A stretch of DNA of 62,862 bases, the filler included, from Asterionella formosa (lineage: Eukaryota): NCBI GenBank assembly GCA_002256025.1. It is 6 parts of 6 records of this genome, joined end to end, with 100 filler letters (N's around TTAATTAATTAA, not from the genome) between each part and the next. Parts side by side here need not be neighbours in the genome. Positions count along the whole stretch, not along the records: positions 1 to 19,575 come from NKIB01003613.1; 5 more parts are not named here. The stretch is one strand, 5' to 3'. Positions 590 through 28,286 of the stretch are shown here, one piece after another. Position numbers and translations under genes: made by a program. Under the pieces are notes generated by a model that searched no databases, was not told where the DNA came from, and saw nothing but the letters and a program-made list of their open reading frames with translations. Position 1 is the first letter of the stretch, and the number at the start of each line of letters is the position of its first letter.

Positions 590-3500
590 CTACCGCAGCT
601 CTACTTTCGTCAAGGCATCGCCTCCATCACTTTGATCAGCTGGTGAAAATCTCTTCACGATCGCTCGCTCACTCTGCAGCCAAGCTCGAACCTTCTGTTT
701 GAGAATACCCCTCTCGCCGTGACCATGAAGAATGTACACGACACTGCGACCCGCCATTATGGACATACTAAATTTGTCCTTTGCTTTGTCCTTTGCCTCT
801 TCGAAATTGCATCCGAGGACATTGACAGTGTTTGACTCAGTTCTTATTGTAATGTCATTAGTCGTCGACTTCGTTGATGGTTGGGCTGAAGCCGGACTGG
901 ATATCTTTTCGCAGGCTAATGCTTGTTCTACTGCTCTAGAATTTCGGTTTCCTTTTTTCGCATCAGAGGCCATTGGCATGACACGTTTGTTTGGCATGGC
1001 GAGTTCTGTCATCTTGAGACGAACAGAAATTCCATTTACCTTGACCTGGGGACGACTGCCCGCCTCGAGAACAATAGCTTCCTTGCCAAACAAACTACCT
1101 TGCTTACATACTTGAAGTTTGTCACCAACCTTCAATTCAGGCTTTTCTCGCATCTCTGCTAGGGGAACAAGTTCAGCCACGGCTTGCTCTAATGCAGCCG
1201 CGTTGGCTAGCTTTGCTTTGACCACGCTAGGCACATTTTCAGCATCGTTGATAGCATCTCTCTTGACAAATTTGATCTCCTCCCAGCTACGAGCAATAAC
1301 TTTCCGAGAAGGATCTGTTTTTAATTTTTCAAGGATATCTTCGAGCACTCGTTCCTTCTCTTCCAATTTGGATGCAAACTTCTTAGCTTCATCGCGACGA
1401 GCACTTAGCTGTTTTTGTTCTAGTTGAGCTTGCTGAGCTTTCAATTCAATTTGGAGAGCGACGATTTCCTTTTTCTTTTCTGCCATGTCTTCCACCTGTT
1501 GATCTACCAAGGCCTTCTGGTCTTCCAATTCACGAAGCAAGTCACCCATTTGTCGAGTTTCAGAGTCCAAAAGCTCTGTTGCTCGATCAATCACCTTCTG
1601 CGGAAGTCCCAATCGTTCGGCGACAGACAAGGCAAAAGACTCTCCCACTGTTCCTGGTAAAAGCTTGTAGGTCGGTCTACCATTCACAAATTGCATGCCT
1701 CCTACAGCAAAACGCTCATCAGATGCTGCCAATTGCTTCAATTCCATGTAATGTGTCGTTATAACCACCCGAGACCCGGCCTCGACCAATTCTTCTAGCA
1801 AGGCTTGTGCAATTGCTACGCCCTGTGCAGGATCAGTCCCACTTCCAAGTTCATCCATCAACACCAATGCATTAGTACCAGAATTCTCCAGAACTTGCTT
1901 GCAGACCAACATGTGACCAGAAAAAGTGGACAAATCTCCTCCGACCGACTGCAAGTCACCAATATCGGCCAAAACAGGAGAAAAGAAGTCCACGCGAGGT
2001 TGATGGTCGGCACTATCAGCTGCAATGGGAATACCGTTCCGAGCCATTAATGCCACTAGCCCCAACAATTTTAAAATGACTGTTTTGCCTCCGGCGTTGG
2101 GACCCGTCAGGACCAACCCCTGGTTTCCGTCTGCACCTAGGTTGATGTCACTTCCCACGACCTTGTCATGGTCACTGATGCGCAGCATTAGCAGTGGATG
2201 TTTTGCATTCTGTAGCGAAACAATTCCCTCATTCCCACAAAGCGGAATGACTCCCCGCCATTGATTTCCCAATAAACACTTGGCTAGAATTAAATCCAAT
2301 TGACCCACAGCCATGACAGCCGCTTCCAATTCAACTCTTGCAGACAAAATTTCTCTGGTCAACGTTCGCCACACACGAGCCTCTTCCATTCGTAATTCTG
2401 CTTCGGCTTGTCGCAAGGCATTGGTAGGTCCTACAAGTTCAGTAGGTTCCACATATACTGTCTTTCCACTTCGACTGGCATCATGCACAATGCCAACACT
2501 AGAGTAGGCTTTGTCCATAGGGATGACAATGCGGCCATTGACTTGCGAATACATGGGACCCCCCGACTCTGTTGCTATTTTGTTTTTCATTGACGGTGCT
2601 TCAAGGATCTTATCTAACGTCCCAAGAATATCCTTTTTGCTAGTTCTTATCGTGGCACGCAGTTGTCCAATATTGGGAAACGTAGTCCCTGACAAGCGTC
2701 CTTCGTTGTCCAAGGCACGGTCTAATAAATCCTGGAGTGTCGTATTGACATGGATGCAATCAACAAATTTTTCAAGCTCAACAAATTGTATTGTCTGAAC
2801 GTTGGCCAACCCTTGACCCCACCGTATGATATCATCCAACACATGCATGATAGTACAAACTTCCAAAATGTCTGGTCCCTCCAACACTTGCCCCCCGTCG
2901 GCAATGCTCAAAATAGAGGCAAGGTCAAAGGACATTCCCCCTAGAGGTGGTGCTCCAAGTGGTTCCTTGTATCCCTTTCGGTTTCGATAGTTAGCGTCGC
3001 CCATCAAGTGATTGTACTTGACGTCTGTCAGGTATTGCATTTCTTGTACTGCTGCGTATCGTTCCTGCAGGCCTTGATAGGAATCGGCTGTTAATGGTTG
3101 GTACGCCTTGGGTATAGGCATGGGCGGCTTGATACTTCCTTGAACAATGGCTCGAGCGGGAAAGGTGCTACACTGTCTTTGCAATGCTTGCAAAATGAGA
3201 GGGAAATCCAAGGTATCCAAGGTGCGTTGTAACAAGTCCAACGATGGTTCTTCTTGTTGCGGTTCCACACCGGCTGTGTTCAGAAGTGGCGACGGCTGAT
3301 TCAGTTGCAAGGGAGTCAAGGTGTTTCGTGCCTGGAACCAACTTTCGTCAAGCATTGTGGGAGATTCTTTCGTTTCGTCCAGAAACGCCGGTGAATCAAA
3401 GTCCGGAGTAGCGTCTGGGTCCCATTGAACCGGTTGTCGAATGAGGGAGTAGCCATCTGCTCCAGCTCGGGCATCGTCGTTGTCCAATCGTTGCTGCTGC

Positions 3501-3628
3501 GATGCTATTGCTGCCGTTCGTACAAAAGGAAAGGCAGCAACAGCACTGGTGCGAAGCAGAAATAAGAATAAGGACAGAAGCAGTCCTGTGCCGAGACGAT
3601 GGGAAGGTAAGCGTGGTACTGGAGTCAT
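590..3628 (-). CDS. mutS2: MutS2 family ATPase/endonuclease with C-terminal Smr domain, probably plastid-targeted
   Basis: Single 1012-aa ORF with Walker A LTGPNAGGKT, DIGDLQS..LSTFSGH, MDELGSGTDP..G, ITTHY, G.SFAL.VA.RLGLP, a coiled coil and Smr ILHGHG..GILK..VR..GGD. N-terminal hydrophobic stretch followed by AVAAFP resembles a bipartite presequence. Confidence 0.93.
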   Translation of the reverse strand: MTPVPRLPSHRLGTGLLLSLFLFLLRTSAVAAFPFVRTAAIASQQQRLDNDDARAGADGYSLIRQPVQWDPDATPDFDSPAFLDETKESPTMLDESWFQARNTLTPLQLNQPSPLLNTAGVEPQQEEPSLDLLQRTLDTLDFPLILQALQRQCSTFPARAIVQGSIKPPMPIPKAYQPLTADSYQGLQERYAAVQEMQYLTDVKYNHLMGDANYRNRKGYKEPLGAPPLGGMSFDLASILSIADGGQVLEGPDILEVCTIMHVLDDIIRWGQGLANVQTIQFVELEKFVDCIHVNTTLQDLLDRALDNEGRLSGTTFPNIGQLRATIRTSKKDILGTLDKILEAPSMKNKIATESGGPMYSQVNGRIVIPMDKAYSSVGIVHDASRSGKTVYVEPTELVGPTNALRQAEAELRMEEARVWRTLTREILSARVELEAAVMAVGQLDLILAKCLLGNQWRGVIPLCGNEGIVSLQNAKHPLLMLRISDHDKVVGSDINLGADGNQGLVLTGPNAGGKTVILKLLGLVALMARNGIPIAADSADHQPRVDFFSPVLADIGDLQSVGGDLSTFSGHMLVCKQVLENSGTNALVLMDELGSGTDPAQGVAIAQALLEELVEAGSRVVITTHYMELKQLAASDERFAVGGMQFVNGRPTYKLLPGTVGESFALSVAERLGLPQKVIDRATELLDSETRQMGDLLRELEDQKALVDQQVEDMAEKKKEIVALQIELKAQQAQLEQKQLSARRDEAKKFASKLEEKERVLEDILEKLKTDPSRKVIARSWEEIKFVKRDAINDAENVPSVVKAKLANAAALEQAVAELVPLAEMREKPELKVGDKLQVCKQGSLFGKEAIVLEAGSRPQVKVNGISVRLKMTELAMPNKRVMPMASDAKKGNRNSRAVEQALACEKISSPASAQPSTKSTTNDITIRTESNTVNVLGCNFEEAKDKAKDKFSMSIMAGRSVVYILHGHGERGILKQKVRAWLQSERAIVKRFSPADQSDGGDALTKVELR

Positions 3629-5043
3629 GTTGTGTAACTGTCAAGTTGGGATTTGTTGTGTGCGTTGCGTAGTCTGTTGCAGTAATCGTTTGTTTATTTC
3701 GTATCGGACTCGTTGATTAGTTGATTAAATGATGAGTTACTGTCATTTCCTAGAATGATTCATGACAAGCGCAGTTGTTGTTGCTGATTACTATGCATAT
3801 TTCGTAGATGTGTAAGTTTAATACAGAAGAACGAAAGTTGGATCAAATTCATCGACATGAGACGACAGGTAAAATAAGAGAAGCAAGACAAGAAGAATAC
3901 GAGCTAGACATGCCGGTATATCCATGTCTAAATGTATTTTCATATGTAAATATTTACCTACGATTATAAATGTATGTGTGTAGAGCGATCATGAGGTGAT
4001 GACGATTGAGCAGGAACAACCTCAGACCACATAGTAGGAAGTTTATAAGGATAGGGATACGAAGGACCTTTTCATTTGTACCAGGTACCGTGGTACTGGA
4101 ACAATGCATGACTTGTGGTCCCGGGTACGTACCAGGGTACCAGGTACCATGTAGCCTGCTGCTTGATTGTGCCTGCTGCCAGCCAGCCACGACATCGTAT
4201 AAATCTACAGGTAAAAGGTAATCAACAAAGACCAGATCATGGTGTCAGGAGGAGGAAGGTCCGTTCAATTTTTGGCTGGCCTTTTTATAATTAAGCAGTG
4301 CAGCATAATGCAAGATAAAAGCATGAAAATCATCATCCACCATGGAGATTTCTTGAACTGCCGCTCCGTTGAGATCCATCGTTTGCATTATTGTTACAAT
4401 CACAAACTGTAAAAAGTATTATCGATGCAGCATGCGACGATAATATTTACTATGTATAGCTACACCTGCTATCAATCATCATCATCAATGGAAANNNNNN
4501 NNNNNNNNNNNNNNNNNNNNNNNNNNNNNNNNNNNNNNNNNNNNNNNNNNNNNNNNNNNNNNNNNNNNNNNNNNNNNNNNNNNNNNNNNNNNNNNNNNNN
4601 NNNNNNNNNNNNNNNNNNNNNNNNNNNNNNNNNNNNNNNNNNNNNNNNNNNNNNNNNNNNNNNNNNNNNNNNNNNNNNNNNNNNNNNNNNNNNNNNNNNN
4701 NNNNNNNNNNNNNNNNNNNNNNNNNNNNNNNNNNNNNNNNNNNNNNNNNNNNNNNNNNNNNNNNNNNNNNNNNNNNNNNNNNNNNNNNNNNNNNNNNNNN
4801 NNNNNNNNNNNNNNNNNNNNNNNNNNNNNNNNNNNNNNNNNNNNNNNNNNNNNNNNNNNNNNNNNNNNNNNNNNNNNNNNNNNNNNNNNNNNNNNNNNNN
4901 NNNNNNNNNNNNNNNNNNNNNNNNNNNNNNNNNNNNNNNNNNNNNNNNNNNNNNNNNNNNNNNNNNNNNNNNNNNNNNNNNNNNNNNNNNNNNNNNNNNN
5001 NNNNNNNNNNNGATCTCAAGGGTGGCAACGATTTAGCCCAACT

Positions 5044-7027
5044 TTAAGCTTGAACTTCCGCGTCATCATGATCAATTGGCTCCTCAGTCAATTCCTTGGT
5101 TGGCAACGTAGGGTCTGGATCTTCGAGTGCCTTGGACTCGGTAGTGTGATGTGGAATATCGAAAACTCCGCGGACAGTGGCGGCTTCTTCAAACCAATTG
5201 GAAAAGGCCTCGGTGCTATCATCGTGAATCTCAGGGTCCAACTTAATTCCAGGAAGAAACATGCGGATACCTTGAAGGATGGCAAACGTTCCCGCCAGCA
5301 TACAGTAAGCAACAAAGAACTGCCACTGTTGGCCGAAATCCCAGCATTCTGTCGCAGAAACACATTGTTCCCAAGTCGGGCTACTGAAGTTATCAAAGCC
5401 AGCCACGGGGACGTGGATGATTCCAAAAAGAGCAAAAAAGGCTGCAACAAGAGCCCAAATGGTGGCCTTCTTCCATTGGCGATCAATCACCATGACAAGC
5501 ATGGCGACCCAAACAAACGACACCAGCAAAGAGCCGCGCTTCCAACCAAGGACTCCGTACCACCCGGGAAGGGATCCGAGATGGGCGTTTCCGCCGTCGT
5601 CGGTTTCGATTGGGCTCAAATTAGAAACATTGACTACCCAATCGTAAATGGAGGGGAAGAGGCCAATAATAAATGCTGCATAGTGGCGAGCGGGCATAAA
5701 TGTCAGCGCTTCTTCATTTATCATCAAGCCAACAAAGAGCACAATAGGACCAATTGTTGCCAAATTCACAATGGACTGCATCAGGGCAAGGACACCAAAC
5801 CAAGATAGGATGAGGTAGACGCACCCATTGACACACGAATAACCCGTCAAGGCACCAGAACGCTTGTGAGCAGGGTGGCCAATATAGATCACGGTTCCAA
5901 AAGGAGATCCGAAGAACGCCGCAAGCATGGTACCGATTCCATCAGCAATCATAGACTCGCGAACCGGAAAAGGGTCGCCAGCTTCCCTGGCACTCACAAG
6001 ACACATGAGAGTCGTGGCAGCTGCAGAAATACCAATGGGAATGACGATTCCCAAAAAGTCTTTAATAGTGCTGAAATCAGCAAACATTTCATCGGCGACC
6101 CACTTCGGTCCCCACCACTTGACTAGTTTCGCAGCGTCTTGGACGGCGCTTACTTCATTCACGCCAGTGGCCCAGCCAAGGATAACACCAACAATAATGA
6201 CTTGAAGGGCTTCAGGGCAACGTACCCCTCCAAAACCAACACGGACATTGGCGTACCAGCCGAGGAAAACCCACATGATCGTGTTGTAACCGACAATAGG
6301 AGCGGCGATGCAGGCGGTAATTTGCTCCATGCCGAGAAAGGCAAATCCAATGCCAGCAATGGGGACGAGGAGTGCGGCAGGAGGAATAATTTGTAGAAGG
6401 TAGGGTCCAAAGCATCCAAGAAATGTCAAGATCAGACCAGTGATGAAGTTTGCTGACAAAGCCACTTGATAGGCCAGAGCGAAGGCGTTTGAAGGGGACT
6501 CAGTAGTAGACGAGGCAAAGTAGACGGGATCTAGAAAAGGAAAAGAAATTGTGGAACACAAGGTTGGAATACTGAAGGTGGCAACCGCACGAGGAAGATG
6601 TCATGATCATGAACTTACACATAATGTTGTAGACAAAAGCAAAGGCTGCAGGGGTGTTCAAGCCATATGGTTGAGCAGTGTATGGACGGCCCCACTTTTT
6701 AGTGAGCCGGATCGCCTGCCAAGTGTAGAAGACGTTTCCAAAGCAAAGGGTAATGCCAACTCCAGGCACGAGCTTGCCCCAAATGATTTGATTAATGTCG
6801 TCAGTGGGAACTCCAAAATCCGCCATGGCCTGAATTGCATAGAGTGCTCCGAGGAGAGTGGAGAGATTATCAAAGAAGAGCTGTGTCAAACTGCCCCAAT
6901 CTCCACCCGTCATGCGAAAACCCTTCCCGAAATCGTTTAGCTCGCCTTTCACACGACCCAGGGTGAAGGATCCCATTTCATGCGTCTTGACTGGTTCAGT
7001 TCCAGGGTCTTCTTCTTCGGTAGACAT
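5044..7027 (-). CDS. AzgA/NCS2-like (xanthine/uracil/purine) permease, 2 exons: 7027-6619 and 6530-5044, ~631 aa
   Basis: GT-AG intron 6618-6531 joins two ORFs in frame (..FVYNIM-Y-PVYF..). Many hydrophobic helices. Motifs FFDNL, GNVFY, TAQPYGLNTPAAF and FGSPFGTVIYIGHPAHKRSGA..GYS match bacterial-type AzgA/NCS2 permeases. Confidence 0.85.
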
Positions 7028-8721
7028 GGCTGCAATGGTGGTTCACCGAGATTCTTCACGATTTCGATCACAGAATACGTGTGGAGCACGTAATACGGTA
7101 TGCGTATACCAATAGCAATTCCAGAATAATAAGATCTTTACTTTCCTATGTATCTTGTTATGCTTTTTTCAGGTTTTCTATCACAGCATTCGATACTGGA
7201 CAGTGCATTGACATTGCAATCAATGTACCGGCTTGAATACCAACAACTTCCGATAAAATAAAAGAAGATCTTTTCCTTCCGACTAGATACCGGTAGTGTC
7301 ATTACTCAGAATTATTGTAAATGCCAGTAAGTAGTCTCGGAATGCTCTAGATCGTTTTCTATGTGACAAGTTGAACATGAATTCTTCAACACCCCTGGTC
7401 ATCAATACTTCCGATATAAAAGGGAAGATCGCTTGATTCCTTCCGTTTAGAGTTGTGGAAGTTCTGTAATCAAAAAGGTGCAAATTGACACTTTGGTCGG
7501 GAAATCAAGCGAGTTGTTGCAACGTCATTTTAGTTGGAGTACGGAGTCCTCCATNNNNNNNNNNNNNNNNNNNNNNNNNNNNNNNNNNNNNNNNNNNNNN
7601 NNNNNNNNNNNNNNNNNNNNNNNNNNNNNNNNNNNNNNNNNNNNNNNNNNNNNNNNNNNNNNNNNNNNNNNNNNNNNNNNNNNNNNNNNNNNNNNNNNNN
7701 NNNNNNNNNNNNNNNNNNNNNNNNNNNNNNNNNNNNNNNNNNNNNNNNNNNNNNNNNNNNNNNNNNNNNNNNNNNNNNNNNNNNNNNNNNNNNNNNNNNN
7801 NNNNNNNNNNNNNNNNNNNNNNNNNNNNNNNNNNNNNNNNNNNNNNNNNNNNNNNNNNNNNNNNNNNNNNNNNNNNNNNNNNNNNNNNNNNNNNNNNNNN
7901 NNNNNNNNNNNNNNNNNNNNNNNNNNNNNNNNNNNNNNNNNNNNNNNNNNNNNNNNNNNNNNNNNNNNNNNNNNNNNNNNNNNNNNNNNNNNNNNNNNNN
8001 NNNNNNNNNNNNNNNNNNNNNNNNNNNNNNNNNNNNNNNNNNNNNNNNNNNNNNNNNNNNNNNNNNNNNNNNNNNNNNNNNNNNNNNNNNNNNNNNNNNN
8101 NNNNNNNNNNNNNNNNNNNNNNNNNNNNNNNNNNNNNNNNNNNNNNNNNNNNNNNNNNNNNNNNNNNNNNNNNNNNNNNNNNNNNNNNNNNNNNNNNNNN
8201 NNNNNNNNNNNNNNNNNNNNNNNNNNNNNNNNNNNNNNNNNNNNNNNNNNNNNNNNNNNNNNNNNNNNNNNNNNNNNNNNNNNNNNNNNNNNNNNNNNNN
8301 NNNNNNNNNNNNNNNNNNNNNNNNNNNNNNNNNNNNNNNNNNNNNNNNNNNNNNNNNNNNNNNNNNNNNNNNNNNNNNNNNNNNNNNNNNNNNNNNNNNN
8401 NNNNNNNNNNNNNNNNNNNNNNNNNNNNNNNNNNNNNNNNNNNNNNNNNNNNNNNNNNNNNNNNNNNNNNNNNNNNNNNNNNNNNNNNNNNNNNNNNNNN
8501 NNNNNNNNNNNNNNNNNNNNNNNNNNNTCGTCAAGTTTCATCGATTACATACAGTATCTGTCGGTTTACAGATTTACCGGTGAATGTGTATCTATTATCC
8601 TCACGTGCGATTGTTTATTTGCAAGCAATAAACAAACCCAAAACATAACGTAGTGTTCATTCTTGTTGGTTGGTCAAGAACTTGACAACTAATTAACTAC
8701 GGCTACATTTTCTTTTGCAAC

Positions 8722-9616
8722 ATGGTACACGAATCGAAATACATTGACGCCGATCCTTACAAGTGGCCTTTTAATGGAAACTTAAACCCCAAGAATACGT
8801 GCATTATCGTGATTGGTGAGTGTTGCAAAATCCGCGCTCTTGTCATCATGATGCACATCCATCACGGTTCAACAACTACTCCTCCGATCGTCTCATTCTT
8901 TGCTGGTTGCTATGATGGTATACACAGACATGCAAGTTGATTTTTGCTCACCTGGCGGGTACGTTGATAAAATGGGCTACGATATCAATTTGACTCGTGC
9001 TCCAATCGAGCCAATTTCGAAAGTGCTTGACTGCATGAGGAAGGAAGGATACCACATAATGCACACTCGGGAAGGGCATCGCCCCGACTTGGCAGATTGT
9101 CCACCAAACAAGTTGTGGCGCAGCGCACAAATTGGTGCCGCCATTGGGTCACTGGGCCCATGTGGCCGCATCTTGGTAAAGGGCGAACCGGGGTGGGAAA
9201 TTATTCCAGAACTATCTCCTCTTCCTGACGAGGTAGTTGTCGATAAACCTGGAAAAGGGTCCTTCGTTGGGACGAACCTTGACCTCATTCTCCGCTCCAG
9301 AGGAATCTGCAACATCATACTTGCTGGGGTGACTACAGATGTTTGTGTACATACCACCATGAGAAACGCGAATGACATGGGTTACGAATGCTTGCTTCTC
9401 GAGGTAAGCGATTATGGACTATTCATGAGCTCAAGAAAGGCCTTTTAAATCTAATCTCATCCAATGTTTCGAATTGATTATACTCTACAGGACTGTTGCG
9501 CCGCAACTGACCCAGACAATCACGCGGCAGCAATCAATATGATTAAGAAGCAAGGCGGGGTCTTTGGATCTGTTTCCAACTCAACTGCACTCATCATGGC
9601 TCTATCGACAGCTTGA
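8722..9616 (+). CDS. biuH: Biuret hydrolase (isochorismatase-like cysteine hydrolase), 3 exons: 8722-8815, 8928-9403, 9491-9616
   Basis: Spliced product [91 protein letters not shown]. Asp-Lys-Cys triad intact. BiuH-type residues present (GGY, MGYD, TTDVC, ATD, QGGV). Both introns are GT-AG and keep frame. Confidence 0.92.
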
Positions 9617-9678
9617 GGTGATACTAGTCTAATGTTAAGAGATTAAAACAGATTATACTTCATACGGACATCGCTCCT

Positions 9679-10745
9679 CTACTCTTCTAACACAATCGGG
9701 TGCATTTCGCCTTCAATAAAGTCAACATTGAAACCAATATCACGAAGAGCAGTTTCTACTTCAGAAGCTGACATGGGGTAGTTGACACGAGCTGTATCCA
9801 ATCCGACTCCAAATCGTACCTTCTTCTTGCATTTGAAAGGGGGCCCATGATCGGGGGACTGTACCTTTGCCTCAGCAGCTCTAATAGCTTTCCGAATTCC
9901 ATCCCAATAACGCATGTATGCCGCTTCGGCCTCTGCCAGGATTTCAGCCGTACAGACCTGTTCATCTGGTGTACCCGAGCTGCACATGGCTTCTGCCTTG
10001 GCAGTACGGTCAGAATCGGATACGTTGGCCCATAGCGCGAGGCTATCGGGAAAATTGGTAACTTGCGTGCCATCGTCAAGGGTACGAATAATAGGACTAG
10101 GAACATGACTTTCGTGAAACCAAACAGCGGTCACAAGTGGCACGGCAACATGCAGCATATCAGTCTTGCCCTGTTTCTCGATTTCACGCCGCAAAAAGGC
10201 TTTGACAGCTGGAAAGGTTGCATCGGCATCTAGGTCAATCTGACCAGTGTCGGGTGTTATGCTTAGGAATCTTGGTTCATGGTTTAAGGCTGAGAGAAGC
10301 TGTCGAGAGTCAACAAGATAGATCCAATATTCATTTGCATGCTCGTAACAACCACTTGCGAATACATTACAGTTGATGAGAGGTTGCATAGGCTCGGGCT
10401 GTCATATGATAGCGAGAACATGTCAGTTGATCAATGACAAAATTCTTTGAACTCTACAATTCAACGAGAAACATCATTCTACAAACATACCGAATATTGT
10501 CTCCATCCTTCCTGCATAACATCTAAAAAGGCCTTATAACCCCTCACAAGCGCCCTTCCAAGGAAGATCGCCCTTGATTCATCGCTTTCACCAGAATGGT
10601 AGTCAAGCTTGTGATGTTCTGGAAAGCCATCTTGTAAACCCCCAGAGACTCCTACGATAAGGTATTCTCGATTCTCACTTGGGGCCGCTGCCACAAAACT
10701 GGCAACAAGTACGTTAAAGCACACGAGGATATGCAGGCTAATCAT
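9679..10745 (-). CDS. Hypothetical secreted protein, 2 exons: 10745-10491 and 10398-9679, ~324 aa
   Basis: ATG at 10745 opens a signal-peptide-like MISLHILVCFNVLVASFVAAAP. Phase-0 intron GTATGT(10490)..CAG(10399) joins it in frame to the 236-aa ORF. No family recognised. Confidence 0.7.
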
Positions 10746-11679
10746 GATGCATAAAAAGGAGAAACTGGGAGGTAGCTGGCGGAAATCTCTCCTGTAGGGC
10801 GGAAACTCGAAGCAGCTATCACCAGTGAGCTGCAAACAATCCTTGCGTCAATTCTGAGTTCTATTAATTAATCAATAAAATATAGCTCAGCCAGCATCAG
10901 AGGAGAAGAATGGTATTTCATGTGTTACGTTGTTTCAATACTTTCACTTTACTCAAGAATGAACAGGTATTCCGCTATCTCGGTACAGGTACTTCCCAGA
11001 ATAGCAAGGCATATATTTCTGTAGAGTACCTGACACTCCGGAATCCGGGTGCCGTAAGGACATTCCAGATTTCACTTGACCCGTTCACGTGATCGAACGA
11101 AGAAGGTCAAATTGCGTTACGTGGCGAACGATGGAGCAATGCATGATTGTTGATTTGACACACGCGACTGATTTCAGTAACGGGCATCTATTCCTAATTT
11201 TGAATGCAACTTCCTCCTCATTTCTGGGAAGCATGACGAGCAAACTTTANNNNNNNNNNNNNNNNNNNNNNNNNNNNNNNNNNNNNNNNNNNNNNNNNNN
11301 NNNNNNNNNNNNNNNNNNNNNNNNNNNNNNNNNNNNNNNNNNNNNNNNNNNNNNNNNNNNNNNNNNNNNNNNNNNNNNNNNNNNNNNNNNNNNNNNNNNN
11401 NNNNNNNNNNNNNNNNNNNNNNNNNNNNNNNNNNNNNNNNNNNNNNNNNNNNNNNNNNNNNNNNNNNNNNNNNNNNNNNNNNNNNNNNNNNNNNNNNNNN
11501 NNNNNNNNNNNNNNNNNNNNNNNNNNNNNNNNNNNNNNNNNNNNNNNNNNNNNNNNNNNNNNNNNNNNNNNNNNNNNNNNNNNNNNNNNNNNNNNNNNNN
11601 NNNNNNNNNNNNNNNNNNNNNNNNNNNNNNNNNNNNNNNNNNNNNNNNNNNNNNNNNNNNNNNNNNNNNNNNNNNNNNN

Positions 11680-12551
11680 ACTGTGGAGCTATCGATGAAA
11701 CCGCACGACGGTATAATTGATCTCTCGCGTACTGCTCTCTTGATCATCGATATGCAAGTAAGAAAATACTCTCGAACCACATTGCTGAGGGTGGAACCAA
11801 CTCTTCTATTACATAACTTACATCAAATCCATTCCATATTGAATTACATTTAGCGAGACTTTCTTGAGGAGGGAGGATTTGGTGAAATTCTTGGCAACGA
11901 CGTCACCAAACTCCAAATAGTTATTGAACCAATCAAGAAATTGCTACTTGCTGCTAGATCATATGGACTAATGGTGATCCATACTCGCGAAGGACACCGA
12001 GCTGATATGACAGATGTACATCCATTCAAGAATGAAAAGAAGGACAAACATGGAAACATTGTCAAGTCAATCGGTGAGACTGGCCCGATGGGTCGGATTC
12101 TCATTCGTGGAGAGCCTGGTCATGATATTATTTCTGACCTCTATCCTGAGAAGGGTGAACCTGTTATTGACAAACCAGGTGAGAAATGAATATTTCCGCC
12201 GCGATTGTACTTCATTCTATCCAGATTTCACTAAAAATTACATTTACTTCACGTGCGTATGTTGTGAACAATGAAGGAAAAGGCTCGTTTTATGCAACTG
12301 ACCTTGATGCAATCTTAGCTGTGAACAACATCACGACTCTACTAGTGTGTGGTGTTACCACTGAGGTTTGTGTACACACGACAGTTCGAGAAGCCAACGA
12401 CCGTGGCAAGCACTGCATTGTAGTATCAGACTGTTGTGCATCATTTTTTGAGGAATTTCACAGAGTTGCGCTTGAGATGATTGTGGCGCAGGGTGGGATC
12501 TTTGGTTCAGTGACTGACAGCGCAAGCATAATCACGGCACTAGCTGGATAA
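11680..12551 (+). CDS. trtA: Triuret hydrolase-like cysteine hydrolase, 5' end in gap; exons <11680-11757, 11854-12178, 12277-12551
   Basis: Spliced product ..[105 protein letters not shown] triad intact. TrtA-type rather than BiuH-type residues (GGF, LGND, TTEVC, AS[Y/F]F, QGGI). Introns 11758-11853 and 12179-12276. Confidence 0.82.
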
Positions 12552-12741
12552 ATTTGACAATGAAGAGCGGAACTCACAGAAAACCCAAATTCACACATGT
12601 ACTTTATGAAAAACAACAAACTCCTTGCTTACATATATTCATTTCTTTCTTTGATAAATACAATAGTCGTTGTTTCTCTGTTAAAATGCAGAATCCAACT
12701 TGCCTAACTTTCACCACAATATATTATTTATAAATAGAAAC

Positions 12742-14385
12742 CTACTTCGCAAAGTTGCTCTTGATCCTGGACAAAATATAATCACCAGCAGTAATTGGAT
12801 CTCCCTTACCATCGTCGATTAGCGCGGACTTATCTGCTTGAGAAAAGAAGGCAATAGAATACCTAGACGAAGGAGGGGTACATTCTTCCTCGGTTGGCAT
12901 TCGTACTCGGTGAAGGTTGGAATACAGTCTACCACCGCTCCATCTGGCGAGCATGTCGCCAATGTTGACGGCGATTCCCCCTTCCACAGGGTCGATGGGC
13001 GTCCAGCGAGAGCCTTCTTTTGATGCGTCACGAGGATTTGAACAGCACTCCAGACCAGCCTGACCGACCCTTTGAAACAAAAGCGTCAGGTCGTCCCAAT
13101 CCGTGTGAGCTCCTGCACGCCAAAAGATGCGACCATTTTCATCTGGAGTTGTAAGTTTCCGAGATAATTCAGCATCCATTGGTGTGTAATGAAGCATACG
13201 GAGTGTGCATTGGCCTTCTGATGCCCACAGTCTTTAATAAAATCATTTGAATTTTGTTTACATAACGAGAACGACACAGAGATATTGTGAGGAAAAAGAC
13301 TCGTTAAATATTGTTGCTAGCGTGCAAGTAACTTACTTGTGTGACTTGGCAAGAGTGCCAGGCTCCAAATTAGGGCAAGCTTTCGGTTCCATTAAGTTGA
13401 GAAGTCGGTTTGTTAACTTGTGTCCCTCAGCAATAAGAGACTCAGCCACTGGACGAAAATTTGACGGCACTGAAGGCCATCTGCCGTCCATTACTCCTTC
13501 TCTTGCTGTAATTTGAAGGCTCTCCTTCTGATCTGCCGTTCCTGTTGATGGACGGACTTGAGTCATGTATTCATAGCCTGAGTTCATTTCACGAGAGAAT
13601 GGTGACATTTCCGTCTTTTCTTCCTCTGGGAGAGAAAAGAAGGCAGCAGAAGCTTCAAATGCACTGTCAATCATTTCTTGAGGAATGCCATGGCCAATCA
13701 AAGTAAAAAATCCGACAGTTGTTGCTGCATTCCAGAGCTGCTCGGCTATCACTTCATCATTTTCTTGGGAAAGGTCAATTACTGGAACGGAGAAATCTCT
13801 CGTCGCCGCAGCTGCTCCAATACCACTGGAAAAAAGAGATCGTTCTGTCTCAATGTCAGCGTTGGCCTGAGCGATTTTCAGTTCATCGCTTCCTTTCCAG
13901 ATTCCACTTTCCCTGTGAACTTTCATGGCTTCTTCGCTCAGGAGAGGACCTTCAATTTCAAGCTGTCTGGTGCCAGGCCGTCCAAGCGAATAGATTTCTT
14001 TCACTGGAATGTCAAAACCACCTGGACCTGACCATTCGCAAAGCTCTTCAGAAGAAGCGCCAAATACTATTCTCCCGATTCCTGACCAATAAATTGCGCC
14101 GGCACACATGACGCACGGCTCGGTGGAAGCGTACATCGTGCACCCCTTTCTGGTATCCATGTCAATATCTGCAACCATGCGAACAAGCTCTAATTCTGCG
14201 TGGCGAGTGACATCACCTGCTCCGCCTCTTTCTTTCCTTGCTGCAGATAAGTTATGACCCTCCTTGAGAATGTTTCCTCCTGCGTCAGCAACAACTGCAC
14301 CGAACGGCATGTTTCCGTTGGCGACAGCTATGGCACTCATCTTGATGGAGCGCCGAAGGCAAGCCTTGTCGTAAGGTCGTGACAT
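12742..14385 (-). CDS. Fusion: CDA-superfamily Zn nucleobase (guanine-deaminase-like) deaminase + 2OG-Fe(II) dioxygenase (DIOX_N/IPNS-like); exons 14385-13337 and 13231-12742, ~512 aa
   Basis: N-domain has PFGAVV, RHAE and YASTEPCVMCAGAIYW. The C-domain starts in the same exon (VPVIDLS, GFFTLIGHGI, FF.LP.EEK, DQKES) and continues after a GT-AG intron (13336-13232) with LRMLHY, GAHTD, LTLLFQ, VNIGDML.RWS, SNLHRV, RYSIAFF, giving a complete HxD..H..RxS set. Confidence 0.9.
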
Positions 14386-15018
14386 AGTTTCTGCAAGTAA
14401 TGGAATTACTAAAGTTGTATAGCAAGTGACAGGATGGTTTTGTGCTTACTATTAACCAGATTTTCTGCTTCTTAGTTTCTGGCAGAAGCAAAAATTGCAT
14501 CTGATTTTAACAGTTTACATTTTATATTTGCCGATCTTCGTTCCCACATGATACGAATACGATACCTACAGTAATGAGACCTACAGCAATTTGTACAGGT
14601 AATTTGATCAATTTCCTTTGTATGATAGTGCTGTCGGCGGGAACTTTTTCCAACGATACCGTATTTATTACCGGTAATTATGTAGTACTCGGCGTTTTGT
14701 TTTATTTCAATCTCGTTTCTACCTGTCTACTAAAGCGGTGGTGAGGTAATCCTGGAATTGTTCCTAGAATCGGACCAATCAAAGGATGAGAAAGCTAGCC
14801 AGCGGTTACACAACAGTTTATATACCACCCGGTTGTATATCAACAGGACTCGATATGCAGGTCACTGCTGCTGTGGTGGTGACAAACAGTTCGTCATTTT
14901 CACGGCCAATCATCAGATGTTTTCACATACCGGTAACAAAATACACATCATTTTAATTTAGATTTCACATTACATCCATCGCTCTAGATGCCGGTGTAGA
15001 TGTAAACTCCCAAACAAA

Positions 15019-16142
15019 ATGCCATTCTCGTACATGCTAACAGGTTCGTTCTGACATGAGTGTCATTGGATATCAGCGCAACTTGATATTGCTATTGTTC
15101 ACCTCCAAAGGAGTCAACGCGAAAGTAAGTGAATCCGCCACCAAACCTTTTTGTTCTCACAACATCATGTTCCGTATTCATCACCGTAGTGGCATACGAT
15201 GGATCCCGGTACAATGGCTTTCAGCGCCAAACGGCATCCCTCGCCGCAGCAAGGGTTCCGAAACGACCACGGTACAATGAGAATGGTCAGAAACAAAGTG
15301 TAGCACACACCATTCAAGATTGTTTAGAAGATGCGATATTAAGTCTGTATCCTCAGCTGTCCCTTGAATCGCTTCGCATGAGATGCGCAGGAAGGACGGA
15401 TGCGGGAGTTCATGCCAAAGGACAAGTTGTAGCCATTGACGTACCTGAGAAGCTACTAGCAAATGAGGATGGAACCCTGTGGCAAACAATTAAGGCCATC
15501 AACAGTCGGTTACCTAATGATATCTCCATTGAAAGAATTGATCCGTGCTGCTTTGGATGGGAGCCACGAAAAGAAGCGATCCGAAAACGATATTCTTACA
15601 CACTTAGATATCGAAGGAATGTTGTAACTAAAGACGGTGCTACTTCGAATGCCATATGCTCCTCTGGAATTCATACCATTCGAAGAGCTCATGATGGGGC
15701 TTGTCTATGGCATTGTCCCTGGGCATTGGACGATCGTCATATGCGCACGTATTGTCGGACGTTATCAGGACAACATGATTATTATGCATTTGTCCATAAA
15801 GAAGAGAGAAAAACACAACGATGTCACAAGATGACATTGACAGCCTTTGACTATCACGTTTTAGATGAAACATCGAATGAGGTGGCACCTGTTCTGACCG
15901 TGCAATTCGTTTTGGAAGCAGCAGGTTTTCGAAGGACCATGGTGCGAAATCTTATTGGATTTGTTGTGGACCTATGCCGTGGTGCTATCCATGCACCATT
16001 AACATCGCTAGAAAAAGTATGGGATGCAAATGAAAATGCAGCTGCATTGATACATGCAGCTCCTGCAAGTGGGTTGTGTCTAGAACGAGTGTACTTTCAA
16101 ACGCATGACGAACCAAGTTTCATTGTATTGGACGAAAAGTGA
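15019..16142 (+). CDS. truA: tRNA pseudouridine synthase, TruA/Pus family; predicted exons 15019-15043 and 15190-16142
   Basis: Motifs AYDGSRYNGFQRQ, AGRTDAGVHAKGQ, LSGQHDY.AF, FRRTMVR.LIG, AAPASGLCL. A proposed intron 15044-15189 gives the N-terminus MPFSYMLT-V-AYDG, matching the TruA YxLTVAYDG consensus. Confidence 0.9.
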
Positions 16143-16782: not shown

Positions 16783-17535
16783 TTAAACCAGTTCCTCAAA
16801 TATGGCAAGAAACTCGTCGGGTGGCTGCGCACCACTCAAGGTATGTTTACCGTCAATGATAAAGAAAGGGACACCATTGCATCGATACTTGGTCTTAAAG
16901 TCCTTCATTTCATGCGAAACTTCCATATTTCCAATCGACTTATCTTCCAACAAATCAGTCACATCCATACCTGCATTCTTCGCACATTCCTCCAAAACAG
17001 AGTTCTCGCCCAAACTCTTTTCTTCTTCAAAGTATGCCTTGAACACGGCATCAACAACTTTATTCTGTAGTTCTGCACCTCCTTCGTCGCGCGCTTTCCA
17101 GATCAATCGATGACTATCAAAGGTGTTGCCAATGGATCCCCCATAGCTAAATTTGATCCCTTCGGATGCTCCGGTTTGGATCATGTGGGGGAGCATCGAG
17201 CGGACTCTTTCTGGGCCGAACCGAGAGTTATAGTAGCCCATTTTATCCACTCCCTTGCCCGATGGCAAATCCGGATTAAGCTCGAATGGTCTCCAGCGTA
17301 CATCGAAATCTACGTTGTCAAAGAGAGATGAGGACTTTGCCGTTTGAATGGCTTTTTCAAGGCGCTTCTTCCCCACATAGCACCAAGGTCAGATCGTGTC
17401 AGAGATAATGTCAATAGGAATAATGCGCTTCGACGACATGCTGGAAGTACTGCTTTGGGCTCGGATGGCAAATGCTACTGCTGATGGAGTATGAATGAGA
17501 GTAAGCAAAGAAGTAAAAGCTACTTTAAAAGACAT
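16783..17535 (-). CDS. DsbA/FrnE-like thioredoxin-fold oxidoreductase, predicted selenoprotein (UGA at 17391-17389, UPWC motif), ~250 aa
   Basis: One frame reads MSFKVAF..SAVAFA..IDIISDTI-TGA-PWCYVGKKRLEKA..VRWRPFELNP..NTFDSHRL..GVPFFII..LSGAQP. The TGA sits exactly at the first Cys of the FrnE CPWC motif. Confidence 0.85.
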
Positions 17536-18298: not shown

Positions 18299-19279
18299 TT
18301 ACAATGTGTCCTTGATGAACGTAATGGCTGCTGCTGCCCGTTCAGTGACTGATTTTGGACGGTACCCATCCATGGCCATAATCATTGTTTCGCATTCTCT
18401 GTATGATGGTTGCCCGTAATCAAATAGCTTGCCCCCGTCTCGCTTGTTTGCAGGGTCCTGATCAAAGTCGAGAGGTTTATCCTCCTGCACCTCCTTTTGT
18501 CCAATTTCAGTCCATACGACATTTGATCCTTCTTTATTAGCATCAGCATTTTGACGCAGAAATACTCGCCATGGGCCTGGGTAGGAACGTAGGACTCGAA
18601 CCTGATCACCTTCTACCATGAGATTTGTACATGAAAAGGTAGGTACAAATGTTTCCACTTGTGCCACTTGGTCACCTCCACCAAAAAAGCCAAAGTCAGT
18701 CCGTCTCTTCCACTGAGCATTGACAAGAATCAAATTTCGCTTTGGTCCCACTTGCGCCTCTAACCCCTGCAACACAGTTACTGAGTCCGAAGATGGCAAC
18801 AAGACAGTGCAAGCATCGTCCTTGGCTGCCTTTGCTTGAGAAAACAAGGCATAAACCCCATCGGACGAGTCTAGCATGGAAGTCGATATAGTCAGCGCTC
18901 CCAAGTTCTCCAGGACACGCTGCATCAAGGGACGAGCCGCTTCCATCATTTGACGAGCACCACCGGGCCAGTCGTCAAGTTCCGTCGCTCCAATGACAGG
19001 TAATAATAGGCGGACGGAGTGGCGATGAATCCCATCCGAAGAGGCTCGTTGGAGGGCTGCTGACGCTTGTCGAATTTGGTCGTCGACAGAGGTTGGGAAT
19101 CGTGTCATTAGAAGATCGTTCAATGCATCGTCTGATTCGGAAGCAAAGAGAGGACTGCAAGTTGAGTAGCCGGTGGTTGTGGTTTTAAGGAAAGATCTGT
19201 GGGAAGAATGTATTGCCGGAAAGCTGAGCCCTGCGACAAGTAGCACGGCAAAGGTGGCGAGCGATTTCGCAAACAACAT
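18299..19279 (-). CDS. DUF1995-family plastid protein
   Basis: 326-aa ORF with signal + transit-like N-terminus. Motifs LLLP..GATELDDWPGGARQM, LILVNAQW and VRVLRSYPGPWRVF recall DUF1995 proteins. Confidence 0.7.
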   Translation of the reverse strand: MLFAKSLATFAVLLVAGLSFPAIHSSHRSFLKTTTTGYSTCSPLFASESDDALNDLLMTRFPTSVDDQIRQASAALQRASSDGIHRHSVRLLLPVIGATELDDWPGGARQMMEAARPLMQRVLENLGALTISTSMLDSSDGVYALFSQAKAAKDDACTVLLPSSDSVTVLQGLEAQVGPKRNLILVNAQWKRRTDFGFFGGGDQVAQVETFVPTFSCTNLMVEGDQVRVLRSYPGPWRVFLRQNADANKEGSNVVWTEIGQKEVQEDKPLDFDQDPANKRDGGKLFDYGQPSYRECETMIMAMDGYRPKSVTERAAAAITFIKDTL

Positions 19280-19575
19280 GTTGAGTTATCGGATGGTATG
19301 GATCTAGAGCGTCACATCTATGAGACTCGTCTGTTATGATGGTCGATGGTTTGAAAGGCGAAAGTTGTATGAATGGACAAAACGCATAACATCGTCGTCA
19401 CAATTAATTCCTGCGTGATTTCGCTCAGAATGCAGTGCCGTCAGCGACCAAAAGATGCTGCCGACGTGACTTTTGTGCATCTGCTTTCTTCGTCAAATCA
19501 GCATGGCTGTGGTCGTATCATTCCGGTGGTGTGAAAAGGGACTACCGGTATTTCCCGGCAGGTAAGAATATTATG

Positions 19576-27169: not shown

Positions 27170-28286
27170 CTAAAGGCCGAGGCTACGCATAGATTGACCT
27201 TCTTGTGGTAGCTGCACACAAAATTGTTCTTCGGAACGTAGACATGACGCAATGGCCTCGATTCCATTGATCACTGCAAGATCGACACCATTTTCCTTGA
27301 CGTAAAATGTCTAAAAACGAATGGAAAGAGAGAGAATCGAAATTCATGAAAACACTGTCACAATAAAGGTAAAAATGAAGCATAATGAAAGAACCTACCG
27401 TTCCATATTTTCCCGAAAGACGGGTCCAAAAGACGTTTGGTAGAGCAAACTTGACTCCCTCCCCAACGTTGAAGTTAAGAACATTTCCTCTACCTCCAAA
27501 CTGATCCACAACCAAGACGACATACTTGTCATCTTTCTGGTTCTCCTTTCCTAGATCCCAGTAGTCTCTGATAGCCAAACCAGGAGTATTGGGGTAGCTT
27601 TGACATAAGACACGAACTCGAAAGCCCGTATCCTTCTCCAGCGATGTCAACAGGTCATTCATTCTACGAGCTTGGCCATTCGTCAAGAATTTTTCCGTCT
27701 GAATCACATTTAGACCTGGCTCCTTGGGAAGAAGATCAGGTCGGTTCACGGGCTCCAATCGAGCCAGGGCTGGCATGACCCCTAAAGTCAGCGCTGCCGT
27801 GGTGACAGCAGAAACGAAAAAGGCGTCACGACGCGACATTTCGATANNNNNNNNNNNNNNNNNNNNNNNNNNNNNNNNNNNNNNNNNNNNNNNNNNNNNN
27901 NNNNNNNNNNNNNNNNNNNNNNNNNNNNNNNNNNNNNNNNNNNNNNNNNNNNNNNNNNNNNNNNNNNNNNNNNNNNNNNNNNNNNNNNNNNNNNNNNNNN
28001 NNNNNNNNNNNNNNNNNNNNNNNNNNNNNNNNNNNNNNNNNNNNNNNNNNNNNNNNNNNNNNNNNNNNNNNNNNNNNNNNNNNNNNNNNNNNNNNNNNNN
28101 NNNNNNNNNNNNNNNNNNNNNNNNNNNNNNNNNNNNNNNNNNNNNNNNNNNNNNNNNNNNNNNNNNNNNNNNNNNNNNNNNNNNNNNNNNNNNNNNNNNN
28201 NNNNNNNNNNNNNNNNNNNNNNNNNNNNNNNNNNNNNNNNNNNNNNTGCTGAGTAAGAAAGTGACGCTGCTTTTTGTGAGCGTCAT
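27170..28286 (-). CDS. TPM-domain thylakoid lumenal protein (TL15.2-like); part in gap, intron 27398-27311
   Basis: Tat signal SRRDAF..PALA followed by RLEPVNRPDLLP..FLTNGQ..LEKDTGFRVRVLCQSYPNTPGLAIRDYW..NVLNFNVG..FWTRL..KYG. The last exon 27310-27170 ends in TAG. The start at 28286 is tentative because it lies across the gap. Confidence 0.82.

Follow-up and report, generated by a model that had tools for sequence, protein, structure and literature searches.

A diatom gene fusing an Msd-type deaminase to a 2-oxoglutarate oxygenase, next to putative triuret and biuret hydrolase genes in Asterionella formosa

We analysed a stretch of 62,862 nucleotides of DNA (the window) from the diatom Asterionella formosa (GenBank assembly GCA_002256025.1), which joins 6 parts of 6 records; its first 19,575 positions come from NKIB01003613.1 and carry the genes discussed here. 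One of these genes encodes a zinc deaminase and an Fe(II)/2-oxoglutarate (2OG) oxygenase in one polypeptide. The fusion is real, is expressed as one mRNA and is conserved across diatoms. Its homologues, its predicted structure and its bacterial counterparts suggest a bifunctional enzyme that degrades a free N-heterocyclic base, with the products of neighbouring genes probably acting downstream; we give this reading a probability of roughly 0.55. The gene is laid out as follows.

12742..14385, minus strand: whole coding sequence of the deaminase-oxygenase fusion, 512 amino acids (sequence, translation, RNA joint and junction in homologues)
14385..13337, minus strand: exon 1, a single open frame from the ATG
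13336..13232, minus strand: intron of 105 nt with GT..AG ends (sequence and RNA)
13231..12742, minus strand: exon 2, stop codon included (sequence and translation)

Exon 1 contains the ATG, the deaminase domain, a linker and the DIOX_N domain of the oxygenase, in this order and with no break in the frame. The intron interrupts a codon after its second base, and the splice junction, which falls between SHK and LW (SHx and LW in alignments), reads through unbroken in homologues. The surrounding sequence is eukaryotic and intron-bearing, with a G+C content of about 40%.

Four RNA runs were compared with positions 4900..14600 of the window: X1 and X3, which are polyA metatranscriptome contigs from lake water (study P1), X5, a polyA transcriptome (study P2), and X7, from a different study. 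Contigs of X1, X3 and X5 contained the joint 13231->13337, which skips 105 nt and has CT..AC ends on the plus strand, and X7 contained a relative with 95-99% identity. Record 4 of X1 (2726 nt) corresponds to 14514..13337 plus 13231..12275 and covers the entire open reading frame; it continues into the convergent neighbour gene, so that this contig alone is no proof of one molecule. Since the domain boundary lies inside exon 1 and the frame is continuous, two separate transcripts are excluded for practical purposes. All genes of the cluster were represented in the polyA metatranscriptome contigs from lake water, the depth of which cannot rank genes by expression.

The original prediction, made from the sequence alone, had held that the fusion is no splicing artefact. 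Both domains indeed begin in exon 1 in one frame, and the spliced mRNA is present in RNA contigs; instead of the two separate transcripts that would have refuted it, the RNA contigs carry one spliced form, and one of them spans the whole open reading frame. The limits that it gave, 12742..14385, are exactly those of the coding sequence, and the catalytic sets that it called complete (HAE, PCVMC, HTD, the distal His and RYS) can all be read in the translation.

The deaminase half comprises the following elements.

13891..14370, minus strand: CDA-fold, Msd-like deaminase domain, amino acids 6-165 (PF00383, Msd matches and invariant motif residues)
14202..14194, minus strand: HAE motif, amino acids 62-64 (translation)
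14118..14104, minus strand: PCVMC motif, amino acids 90-94 (translation)

The Pfam family dCMP_cyt_deam_1 (PF00383) matched amino acids 6-109 with an E-value of 5e-18 and 65.3 bits (cut-off 25), and H62, A63, E64, C91 and C94 were invariant in an alignment of 27 sequences. In a sequence search of the PDB, the best solved relatives of amino acids 6-131 were chains of the deaminase Msd (8wlw and 5xko, E 6.9e-16 to 2.5e-15; further Msd chains to 5.4e-15). Weaker matches were found for TadA (2b3j, 2.8e-10), a cytosine deaminase chain (8vll, 5.6e-10) and the Bacillus guanine deaminase (1wkq, 7.2e-10), and still weaker ones for yeast cytosine deaminase (1uaq, 2.5e-8) and Nitrosomonas NE0047 (2.2e-7); the cytosine deaminase matches ranged down to 2.7e-8. 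By this search the domain is nearer to Msd than to guanine, cytosine or tRNA deaminases. The HMMER alignment to Msd stops at about amino acid 131, short of the C-terminal part expected to hold a second acidic residue, a feature of guanine and cytosine deaminases that the Msd type lacks.

According to parts of the Msd study, Msd acts on 5-azacytosine and isoguanine and not on cytosine or guanine, prefers aza-scaffolds of the s-triazine class, and is selective for mutagenic bases (PMC11963756). With Msd as the best solved relative, the idea in the original prediction that the deaminase belongs to a type acting on heterocycles, including s-triazine-like bases, appears well founded at the level of sequence.

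Homologues carry a different label in their source records, 'tRNA(Arg) A34 adenosine deaminase TadA', which together with the TadA chain match would fit a nucleic-acid editor, that is, a TadA-like tRNA or DNA deaminase joined to a TET/AlkB-like oxygenase. Against the TadA equivalog model NF008113, with a cut-off of 150 bits, exon 1 scored only 53.4 bits and the full-length homologue P0021 only 56 bits, and TadA identity was rejected. Moreover, the oxygenase is of the DIOX_N/2OG-FeII_Oxy type, its nearest relatives are all small-molecule enzymes, and the bacterial gene context is one of small-molecule transport. A role in nucleic-acid editing is therefore highly improbable.

The linker and the oxygenase half comprise the following elements.

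13789..13890, minus strand: conserved linker, amino acids 166-199 (alignment)
13501..13788, minus strand: DIOX_N part, amino acids 200-295 (PF14226, E 2.9e-22, 80 bits, cut-off 27.3)
12838..13125, minus strand: 2OG-FeII_Oxy core, in exon 2 (PF03171, E 3.5e-16, 59.8 bits, cut-off 23)
13107..13099, minus strand: HTD motif, amino acids 392-394 (translation)

Near-invariant residues of the linker are D177, E181, L184, G190 and A192, and residues 174-189 form a helix in the structure model of P0021. The same linker motif occurs at the N-terminus of 2OG-only, eukaryote-like homologues. The remaining motif residues of the oxygenase are the distal H457 and R473-Y-S475. In an alignment of 38 sequences, the HTD motif, the distal His and the oxygenase core were invariant, and R-Y-S was nearly so (at least 90%).

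Several lines point to thymine-7-hydroxylase (T7H) as the closest characterised enzyme. Exon 2 gave thymine dioxygenase 5c3p as its top PDB match (4.5e-15), and the iron triad H392/D394/H457 and the residues R473/S475 align with H214/D216/H271 and R286/S288 of T7H. An AlphaFold2 model of P0021, which is 62% identical to the fusion (pLDDT 89.6, pTM 0.70), retrieved T7H first in Foldseek, with E 1.2e-24, a TM score of 0.78 on the target and 24-25% identity. The next matches, at 1e-22 to 1e-21, were maize and rice HSL1, Caulobacter CC_0200, SpoC, TropC and others, and the N-terminal half of the oxygenase matches plant enzymes ahead of T7H. The original prediction of a DIOX_N oxygenase akin to a nucleobase oxidase thus agrees with what sequence comparison and the predicted fold suggest.

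The HMMER alignment further indicated that R190, L192, Y194, H214, D216, H271, R286, S288 and F292 of T7H are kept in the fusion, while Y217 is replaced by Trp and N294 by Gln; N87 and E122 lie outside the mapped half. The RxS motif and an aromatic residue six positions after the Arg are common in the 2OG oxygenase family. Because several of the kept residues are common in the family, they would indicate a planar small substrate rather than thymine specifically. Parts of the T7H study list R190, Y217, F292, N294, N87 and E122 as base-binding residues, and state that Trp in place of Y217 is tolerated in some species (PMC4787775).

These similarities raise the question of pyrimidine salvage as in fungi, in which 5-methylcytosine or cytosine would be deaminated to thymine or uracil, T7H activity would oxidise thymine stepwise towards uracil-5-carboxylate, and the neighbouring amidases would be unrelated. 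Both the exon 2 match and the fold favour T7H, its base-stacking and cosubstrate residues are kept, and cytosine deaminase chains occur among the deaminase matches (5.6e-10 to 2.7e-8). However, the deaminase is nearer to Msd, which refuses cytosine; the identity to T7H is only 24-25%, plant enzymes come first for the N-terminal half of the oxygenase, and several of the kept residues occur family-wide. The bacterial gene contexts described below, with ABC transporters, amidohydrolases and UreD, point to uptake and breakdown instead. We consider pyrimidine salvage quite unlikely.

A stand-alone form of the oxygenase half also exists. At 8185-9420 (plus strand) of L003, a eukaryote-like freshwater contig of 12 kb with protein kinases and a subtilase as neighbours, a 411-amino-acid oxygenase combines the diatom linker motif with an N-terminal extension and has no deaminase, and L002 encodes a similar protein. 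Six of the seven eukaryote-like metagenome loci (L001-L003 and L005-L007) contain the oxygenase part only, and most of these are short.

A homologue search with exon 1 (348 amino acids; E <=1e-5; 8000 scored candidates) returned 312 proteins, of which 120 were listed. By our own count, PF00383, PF14226 and PF03171 occur together in 63 of the 120 matches listed, in proteins of 450-603 amino acids; most of the other listed matches are shorter gene calls that end at the intron position or begin in the linker. The named records among the matches listed are all diatoms: Seminavis robusta, Cyclostephanos tholiformis, Attheya sp. and an MMETSP record with an organism field that begins 'Chaet'. One MMETSP transcript, P0069 (543 amino acids), is flagged complete. 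The diatom deaminase domains formed one clade with a support of 99 (FastTree, 181 rows).

Seminavis and Cyclostephanos both hold the fusion and a BiuH-like protein. Furthermore, the fusion homologue P0030 and the BiuH-like P0180 share the source 'lgn' (4 members, longest contig 16614 bases) and may lie on one contig. Among diatoms, BiuH-like proteins are frequent (Fragilaria crotonensis, Amphora, Fistulifera, Seminavis, Cyclostephanos and Cylindrotheca), and they also occur in brown algae and Tisochrysis. A fission-yeast relative, SPCC1494.01, appears as nitrogen-limitation-induced in one table of PMC4614384.

The diatom alignment was scanned once against metagenome contigs and once against prokaryote genome contigs, which yielded 160 loci. 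In 154 of these we found a stand-alone relative of the deaminase with 36-44% identity. Two contexts recur. In the first, present in 6 of the 154 loci, a close copy of the oxygenase (46-51% identical to exon 2 and 41-46% to DIOX_N) lies beside the deaminase gene. The two genes share a strand, deaminase first, in L004 (deaminase 421-924, oxygenase 937-1908, 12 bp gap) and in L118 from a Vibrio metagenome-assembled genome (MAG; deaminase 5052-5525, oxygenase 5588-6631, 62 bp gap); they are divergent in L136 and L153 (Acidovorax), L140 (Comamonas testosteroni) and L148 (Hylemonella). Their partners include NMT1/THI5-like binding proteins, ABC transporter genes, a YcdC-like TetR regulator, amidohydrolases and a creatininase-family gene, with a second CDA deaminase and UreD in L004. 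Since close oxygenase copies adjoin the deaminase gene in these six loci, the two halves probably work together.

The second context is an operon in which the deaminase is preceded, at a distance of about 2.2 kb, by a true BiuH (416-421 bits, cut-off 370), and which also contains a Bmp/PnrA ABC transporter. BiuH occurs within 10 kb of the deaminase in 16 of the 154 loci; where both flanks extend for 5 kb or more, the counts are 6 of 62 for genomes and 3 of 14 for metagenomes. Four Bradyrhizobium are among the named BiuH-linked genomes. In L097 and L121 there is also a TrtA-like gene, 62-64% identical to the one in the window. L097 further encodes a permease homologue, an allantoate amidohydrolase (560 bits, cut-off 479), an 8-oxoguanine deaminase (673 bits, cut-off 532) and a xanthine-dehydrogenase-like enzyme. 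A formamidase is present in L017 and L114 (581 and 565 bits, cut-off 406), and L114 clusters the deaminase with two amidohydrolases, a paralogous 2OG oxygenase (32%), Bmp ABC genes, the formamidase and BiuH. Transporter genes recur more widely. In 12 of the 154 loci a Xan_ur_permease stands immediately upstream of the deaminase, no more than 3 kb away; 31 loci have Bmp/PnrA ABC genes at up to 10 kb, and 11 have NMT1/THI5-like binding proteins at up to 5 kb.

Two further observations concern these loci. A conserved protein of 366-398 amino acids, which has a signal peptide and matches neither Pfam nor NCBIfam, is encoded divergently beside the deaminase in BiuH-type operons (12 metagenome loci in one cluster; for example L097:10557-11657, L121:10652-11752, L160:10599-11795 and L017:9707-10816, all on the minus strand). 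The 366-amino-acid form also had no PDB sequence match, and the ESM Atlas offered a Tsx-like nucleoside channel as a lead only. In L040:8444-10465 (plus strand, 673 amino acids) and L049:7045-9012 (plus strand, 655 amino acids), a Xan_ur_permease and a CDA deaminase stand in one frame; this is a permease-deaminase fusion, or else the open reading frame call ran through overlapping genes.

The bacterial contexts also bear on the view that the fusion cleans the base pool of a photosynthetic cell, removing mutagenic or oxidised bases (isoguanine, aza-bases, oxidised guanine products) much as Msd would, with the adjacency to TrtA and BiuH coincidental or due only to a shared origin of substrates in purine oxidation. 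The selectivity of Msd for mutagenic bases, as given in parts of its description (PMC11963756), would suit this role, and so would the facts that the adjacency is not kept in Seminavis and Cyclostephanos and that pair-bearing bacteria lack a BiuH above the cut-off. However, the operons in which the bacterial relatives reside are of the uptake kind and encode binding proteins, permeases, formamidase, urease accessory proteins and an outer-membrane-protein-like product. Such a context fits an external compound, and the cluster in the window likewise includes a permease. Base-pool cleaning is accordingly an improbable explanation.

Three neighbours of the fusion in the window have counterparts in the bacterial operons.

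11695..12551, plus strand: TrtA-type isochorismatase-like hydrolase, 220 amino acids (exons 11695..11757, 11854..12176 and 12275..12551)
8722..9616, plus strand: BiuH-type biuret hydrolase, about 231 amino acids (exons 8722..8814, 8927..9401 and 9489..9616)
5044..7027, minus strand: polytopic membrane protein, about 631 amino acids when spliced (intron 6531..6618; RNA joint 6530->6619)

The gene at 11695..12551 is convergent with the fusion, their stop codons being about 190 bp apart. Its RNA joints are 11757->11854 and 12176->12275, exon 1 is also translated, and exon 2 is 100% identical to P0243 (220 amino acids). P0243 scored 242.5 bits against TrtA (6xix) versus 228.6 bits against BiuH (6azo), a margin of 14 bits, and 270.7 bits against the BiuH equivalog model, below the cut-off of 370. 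TrtA and BiuH differ at six discriminating positions (F35, N41, A134, E160, Y187 and I205 versus Y, Y, S, D, T and V), the substitution A134S is neutral in TrtA, and 6xix is the Herbaspirillum TrtA (PMC7948467). The window gene has the Asp-Lys-Cys triad and the lid motif and is TrtA-type at four of the six positions (F35, N41, E160 and I205), with Y187 replaced by F and A134 by S. It encodes a putative hydrolase of the TrtA type.

The gene at 8722..9616, with RNA joints 8814->8927 and 9401->9489, scored 263.6 bits against BiuH (6azo) versus 167.6 bits against TrtA, and all six discriminating positions are those of BiuH (Y, Y, S, D, T, V). Scored exon by exon against NF050097 (cut-off 370), it reached 292.4 bits over 164 aligned residues; two full-length homologues, 92% and 87% identical, reached 387.5 and 388.9 bits. 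By these measures the gene is predicted to belong to the BiuH class. The placement of a TrtA-type gene beside the fusion is as originally described, as far as sequence comparison can assign this family, and the BiuH-type gene is 3 kb beyond it.

The membrane protein had no Pfam or NCBIfam match, and its gene was present in RNA contigs of all four runs. A 550-amino-acid bacterial protein encoded at L097:5892-7544, directly downstream of the TrtA-like gene, matched window positions 5413..6910 (minus strand) in tblastn with E 4.9e-37 and 27% identity over 371 amino acids. This bacterial protein likewise had no Pfam, NCBIfam or PDB sequence match; each of the two has about 10 hydrophobic segments, and the ESM Atlas lead for the bacterial one is an AGZA or xanthine-uracil permease-like protein (0.90-0.99, a lead only). 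The membrane protein in the window is probably a permease, and may represent a family of permeases, not described so far, that goes with triuret/biuret-type clusters.

The mechanism that we propose builds on direct findings, namely the gene structure, the single mRNA, the intact catalytic sets, the conservation in diatoms, the four family assignments and the bacterial neighbourhood parallels. One cytosolic-looking enzyme of 512 amino acids would act on a free amino-substituted base, purine-like or aza-pyrimidine/s-triazine-like. The Msd-type N-terminal zinc deaminase would convert the exocyclic amine to a carbonyl and release NH3. The Fe(II)/2OG oxygenase would then clamp the planar product between two aromatic side chains, as T7H does, and hydroxylate a ring C-H or a side-chain carbon. 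The oxidised base would be broken down further for nitrogen, in the diatom probably by the TrtA-type and BiuH-type amidases encoded next to the fusion; import of the compound, or of a related one, is probably the task of the permease nearby. We infer the order of the two reactions and the free-base substrate; that the fusion feeds TrtA and BiuH is plausible, and the hand-over of its product to these enzymes would be the weakest step.

Two routes come into consideration for such an enzyme. Triazines of the 5-azacytosine or ammelide type could pass via 5-azauracil to cyanuric acid or formylbiuret. Alternatively, isoguanine or an oxidised guanine product could lead to xanthine- or urate-type compounds, the oxidation of which is reported to give triuret. 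As a speculation, a formyl-ureide intermediate would be consistent with the formamidase that adjoins BiuH in two bacterial loci.

The original prediction was more specific: the fusion would deaminate a purine or triazine-like base and then open the ring oxidatively, yielding triuret for the adjacent TrtA. The adjacent gene is indeed of the TrtA type (lid motif, F35, N41, E160, I205; Y187 = F) with BiuH 3 kb away, and L097 unites the deaminase with TrtA-like, BiuH, 8-oxoguanine deaminase, allantoate amidohydrolase and xanthine-dehydrogenase-like genes. However, the nearest relatives of the oxygenase include no ring-opening enzyme; T7H hydroxylates a methyl group. On chemical grounds, the conversion of a purine to triuret loses two carbons, beyond what one deamination and one 2OG oxidation achieve. 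Bacteria with the gene pair have no BiuH above the cut-off, and the TrtA assignment of the neighbour depends on 4 of 6 diagnostic residues and a margin of 14 bits. Hence, we regard triuret formation by this route as unlikely.

A broader proposal is that the permease, BiuH, the TrtA-type amidase and the fusion form a diatom catabolic cluster of bacterial derivation that imports and fully mineralises an oxidised-purine or natural s-triazine-type compound, with the fusion yielding biuret-type ureides. An amino-triazine or an oxidised guanine product would be deaminated and hydroxylated, and the ring would fall apart into formylbiuret, carboxybiuret or triuret. Since all parts have counterparts in bacterial operons, the cluster was probably acquired from bacteria, with introns and the fusion gained later. 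We hold this proposal only tentatively, as a doubtful one. If it were true, the fusion would be the first enzyme known to make biuret-type ureides biologically, and would explain why BiuH and TrtA are widespread despite no known natural source of their substrates.

Several results count against a base-degrading enzyme that feeds the neighbouring amidases. The co-occurrence with trtA and biuH that the original prediction expected was borne out in part, in that BiuH lies near the bacterial deaminase in 16 of the 154 loci and that the fusion coexists with a BiuH-like protein in Seminavis and Cyclostephanos. It did not extend to the complete enzyme pair. BiuH exceeded the cut-off in none of the five bacterial genomes with the deaminase-oxygenase pair (the best match, in Hylemonella, had 246.9 bits and lies about 1.5 Mb from the pair), and an isochorismatase-like match was absent from all six pair loci. 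Conversely, none of the five BiuH-linked genomes had a close match to exon 2, and weak matches (36-44%) occurred in only one of them. Since neither set of genomes holds the other partner, the bacteria sampled show the two associations apart from each other. Independent events are also few, because many of the BiuH-linked loci are from Bradyrhizobium or are look-alikes.

In Seminavis and Cyclostephanos, the fusion and the BiuH-like gene (in Seminavis also a TrtA-like gene) lie on contigs of differing lengths, so that the adjacency is not general in diatoms. The 181-row tree resolved no bacterial sister of the diatom deaminase clade and is therefore silent on whether 2OG-linked or BiuH-linked bacterial deaminases were the donor. 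The T7H fold match is only slightly ahead of plant and fungal enzymes with unrelated substrates, and oxygenases of this family usually hydroxylate rather than open rings. Finally, allophanate hydrolase, urease and cyanuric acid hydrolase were all absent from those open reading frames of the window that were scanned.

Although hydrolases for biuret and triuret occur widely, it is unsettled where their substrates come from in nature, and the fusion offers a concrete candidate. Triuret biosynthesis 'remains to be elucidated', with purine oxidation suspected, and BiuH and TrtA are mentioned in 'phytoplankton' (PMC7948467). A nitrifier MAG study of 2025, in the parts on which we draw, names biuret and triuret among the products of purine oxidation, leaves the enzyme unnamed, and reports a Bmp/nucleoside ABC transporter beside biuH in nitrifier MAGs as well (PMC12625717). 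For diatom biology, our results point to an unrecognised route for organic nitrogen. The pairing of the two enzymes is conserved, as a fusion in diatoms and as neighbouring genes in Comamonadaceae and a Vibrio MAG, and the deaminase family involved is repeatedly linked with BiuH, TrtA-like genes and nucleobase or nucleoside transporters.

Both domain families were already known. Full-text searches found no description of the fusion, of its split bacterial form or of the link to BiuH, TrtA or the permease. The word 'deaminase' is absent from the main text of PMC12625717, which draws biuH synteny, and its sole mention in PMC7948467 concerns carboxybiuret metabolism; the supplements of both may show gene neighbourhoods. 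Thus the fusion itself, the split form of it in bacteria and the repeated association of the deaminase family with BiuH, TrtA and the no-Pfam permease appear to be new.

Further genes near the fusion are the following.

9679..10847, minus strand: spliced, expressed gene between the BiuH-type and TrtA-type genes (intron 10399..10490)
590..3640, minus strand: flanking gene with MutS_V and Smr domains (MutS2-like)
15129..16142, plus strand: TruA-type pseudouridine synthase, divergent from the fusion
16783..17388, minus strand: DSBA-like thioredoxin-fold protein
18299..19285, minus strand: flanking DUF1995 gene

The product of 9679..10847 has a hydrophobic, signal-like start and no Pfam or NCBIfam match. 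Runs of N occur at about 7500..8540, 11250..11690, 4440..5040, 27800..28250, 30540..31030, 32300..33100 and 36900..37520. The ends of RNA contigs run into them at 8528 and 11681, and an X7 contig bridges 11247->11680. Because RNA contigs enter them, at least the runs at about 7500..8540 and 11250..11690 conceal genuine sequence, which lies upstream of the BiuH-type and TrtA-type genes.

The TrtA-type exon also matched long isochorismatase proteins of 460-1138 amino acids at 46-56% identity: P0244 (Paenibacillus sp. 598K, 526 amino acids), P0245, P0247 (Chlamydomonas reinhardtii CHLRE_10g448500v5, 498 amino acids), P0250 (Micractinium) and P0251. Their length suggests tandem double hydrolases, possibly TrtA-BiuH fusions, in green algae and one Paenibacillus.

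Compared with known systems, the gene cluster in the window resembles the TrtA-BiuH pathway of Herbaspirillum sp. BH-1 and Rhizobium leguminosarum (PMC7948467) in that TrtA-type and BiuH-type genes lie within 3 kb of each other, as in the bacterial operons. In contrast to these, the window cluster is eukaryotic and intron-bearing, adds the deaminase-oxygenase fusion and a no-Pfam permease, and showed neither atzF nor trtB among the window open reading frames scanned.

The deaminase half shares with Msd of Mycobacterium smegmatis (PDB 5XKO, 8WLV-8WLX) the HxE and CxxC zinc motifs, the Trp after the CxxC helix (W100 in the fusion, invariant) and a comparable loop after the last core strand; Msd itself acts on free aza-pyrimidine and purine analogues. 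The identity is about 40%, however, and the di-proline of Msd is a single Pro in the fusion. Msd is a stand-alone protein of 158 amino acids, whereas the domain in the fusion is joined to an oxygenase. The Msd literature, as far as the portions cited here extend, reports Msd mainly from Mycobacterium, tied to toxin efflux regions, whereas the bacterial relatives of the fusion deaminase occur in uptake and catabolic loci.

For the oxygenase half, T7H of Neurospora crassa (PDB 5C3P-5C3S) is the best match in sequence and predicted fold. The Fe and 2OG ligands are identical, and the Arg and aromatic pair that clamp the free base in T7H are present in the fusion. T7H differs in that it has no fused deaminase, the identity over the fold alignment is 24-25%, Y217 and N294 are W and Q in the fusion, and the margin by which it outranks unrelated family members is small (E 1e-24 versus 1e-22).

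The split bacterial form (L004, L118, L136, L140, L148 and L153) differs from the fusion in that the genes are separate and stand in a context of ABC uptake, TetR, amidohydrolase and creatininase genes, or of a second CDA deaminase and UreD, with BiuH and TrtA not found nearby; all six loci are uncharacterised. Yet both families are represented, at 36-44% identity for the deaminase and 46-51% for the oxygenase, and the gene order in L004 and L118 is the domain order of the diatom fusion.

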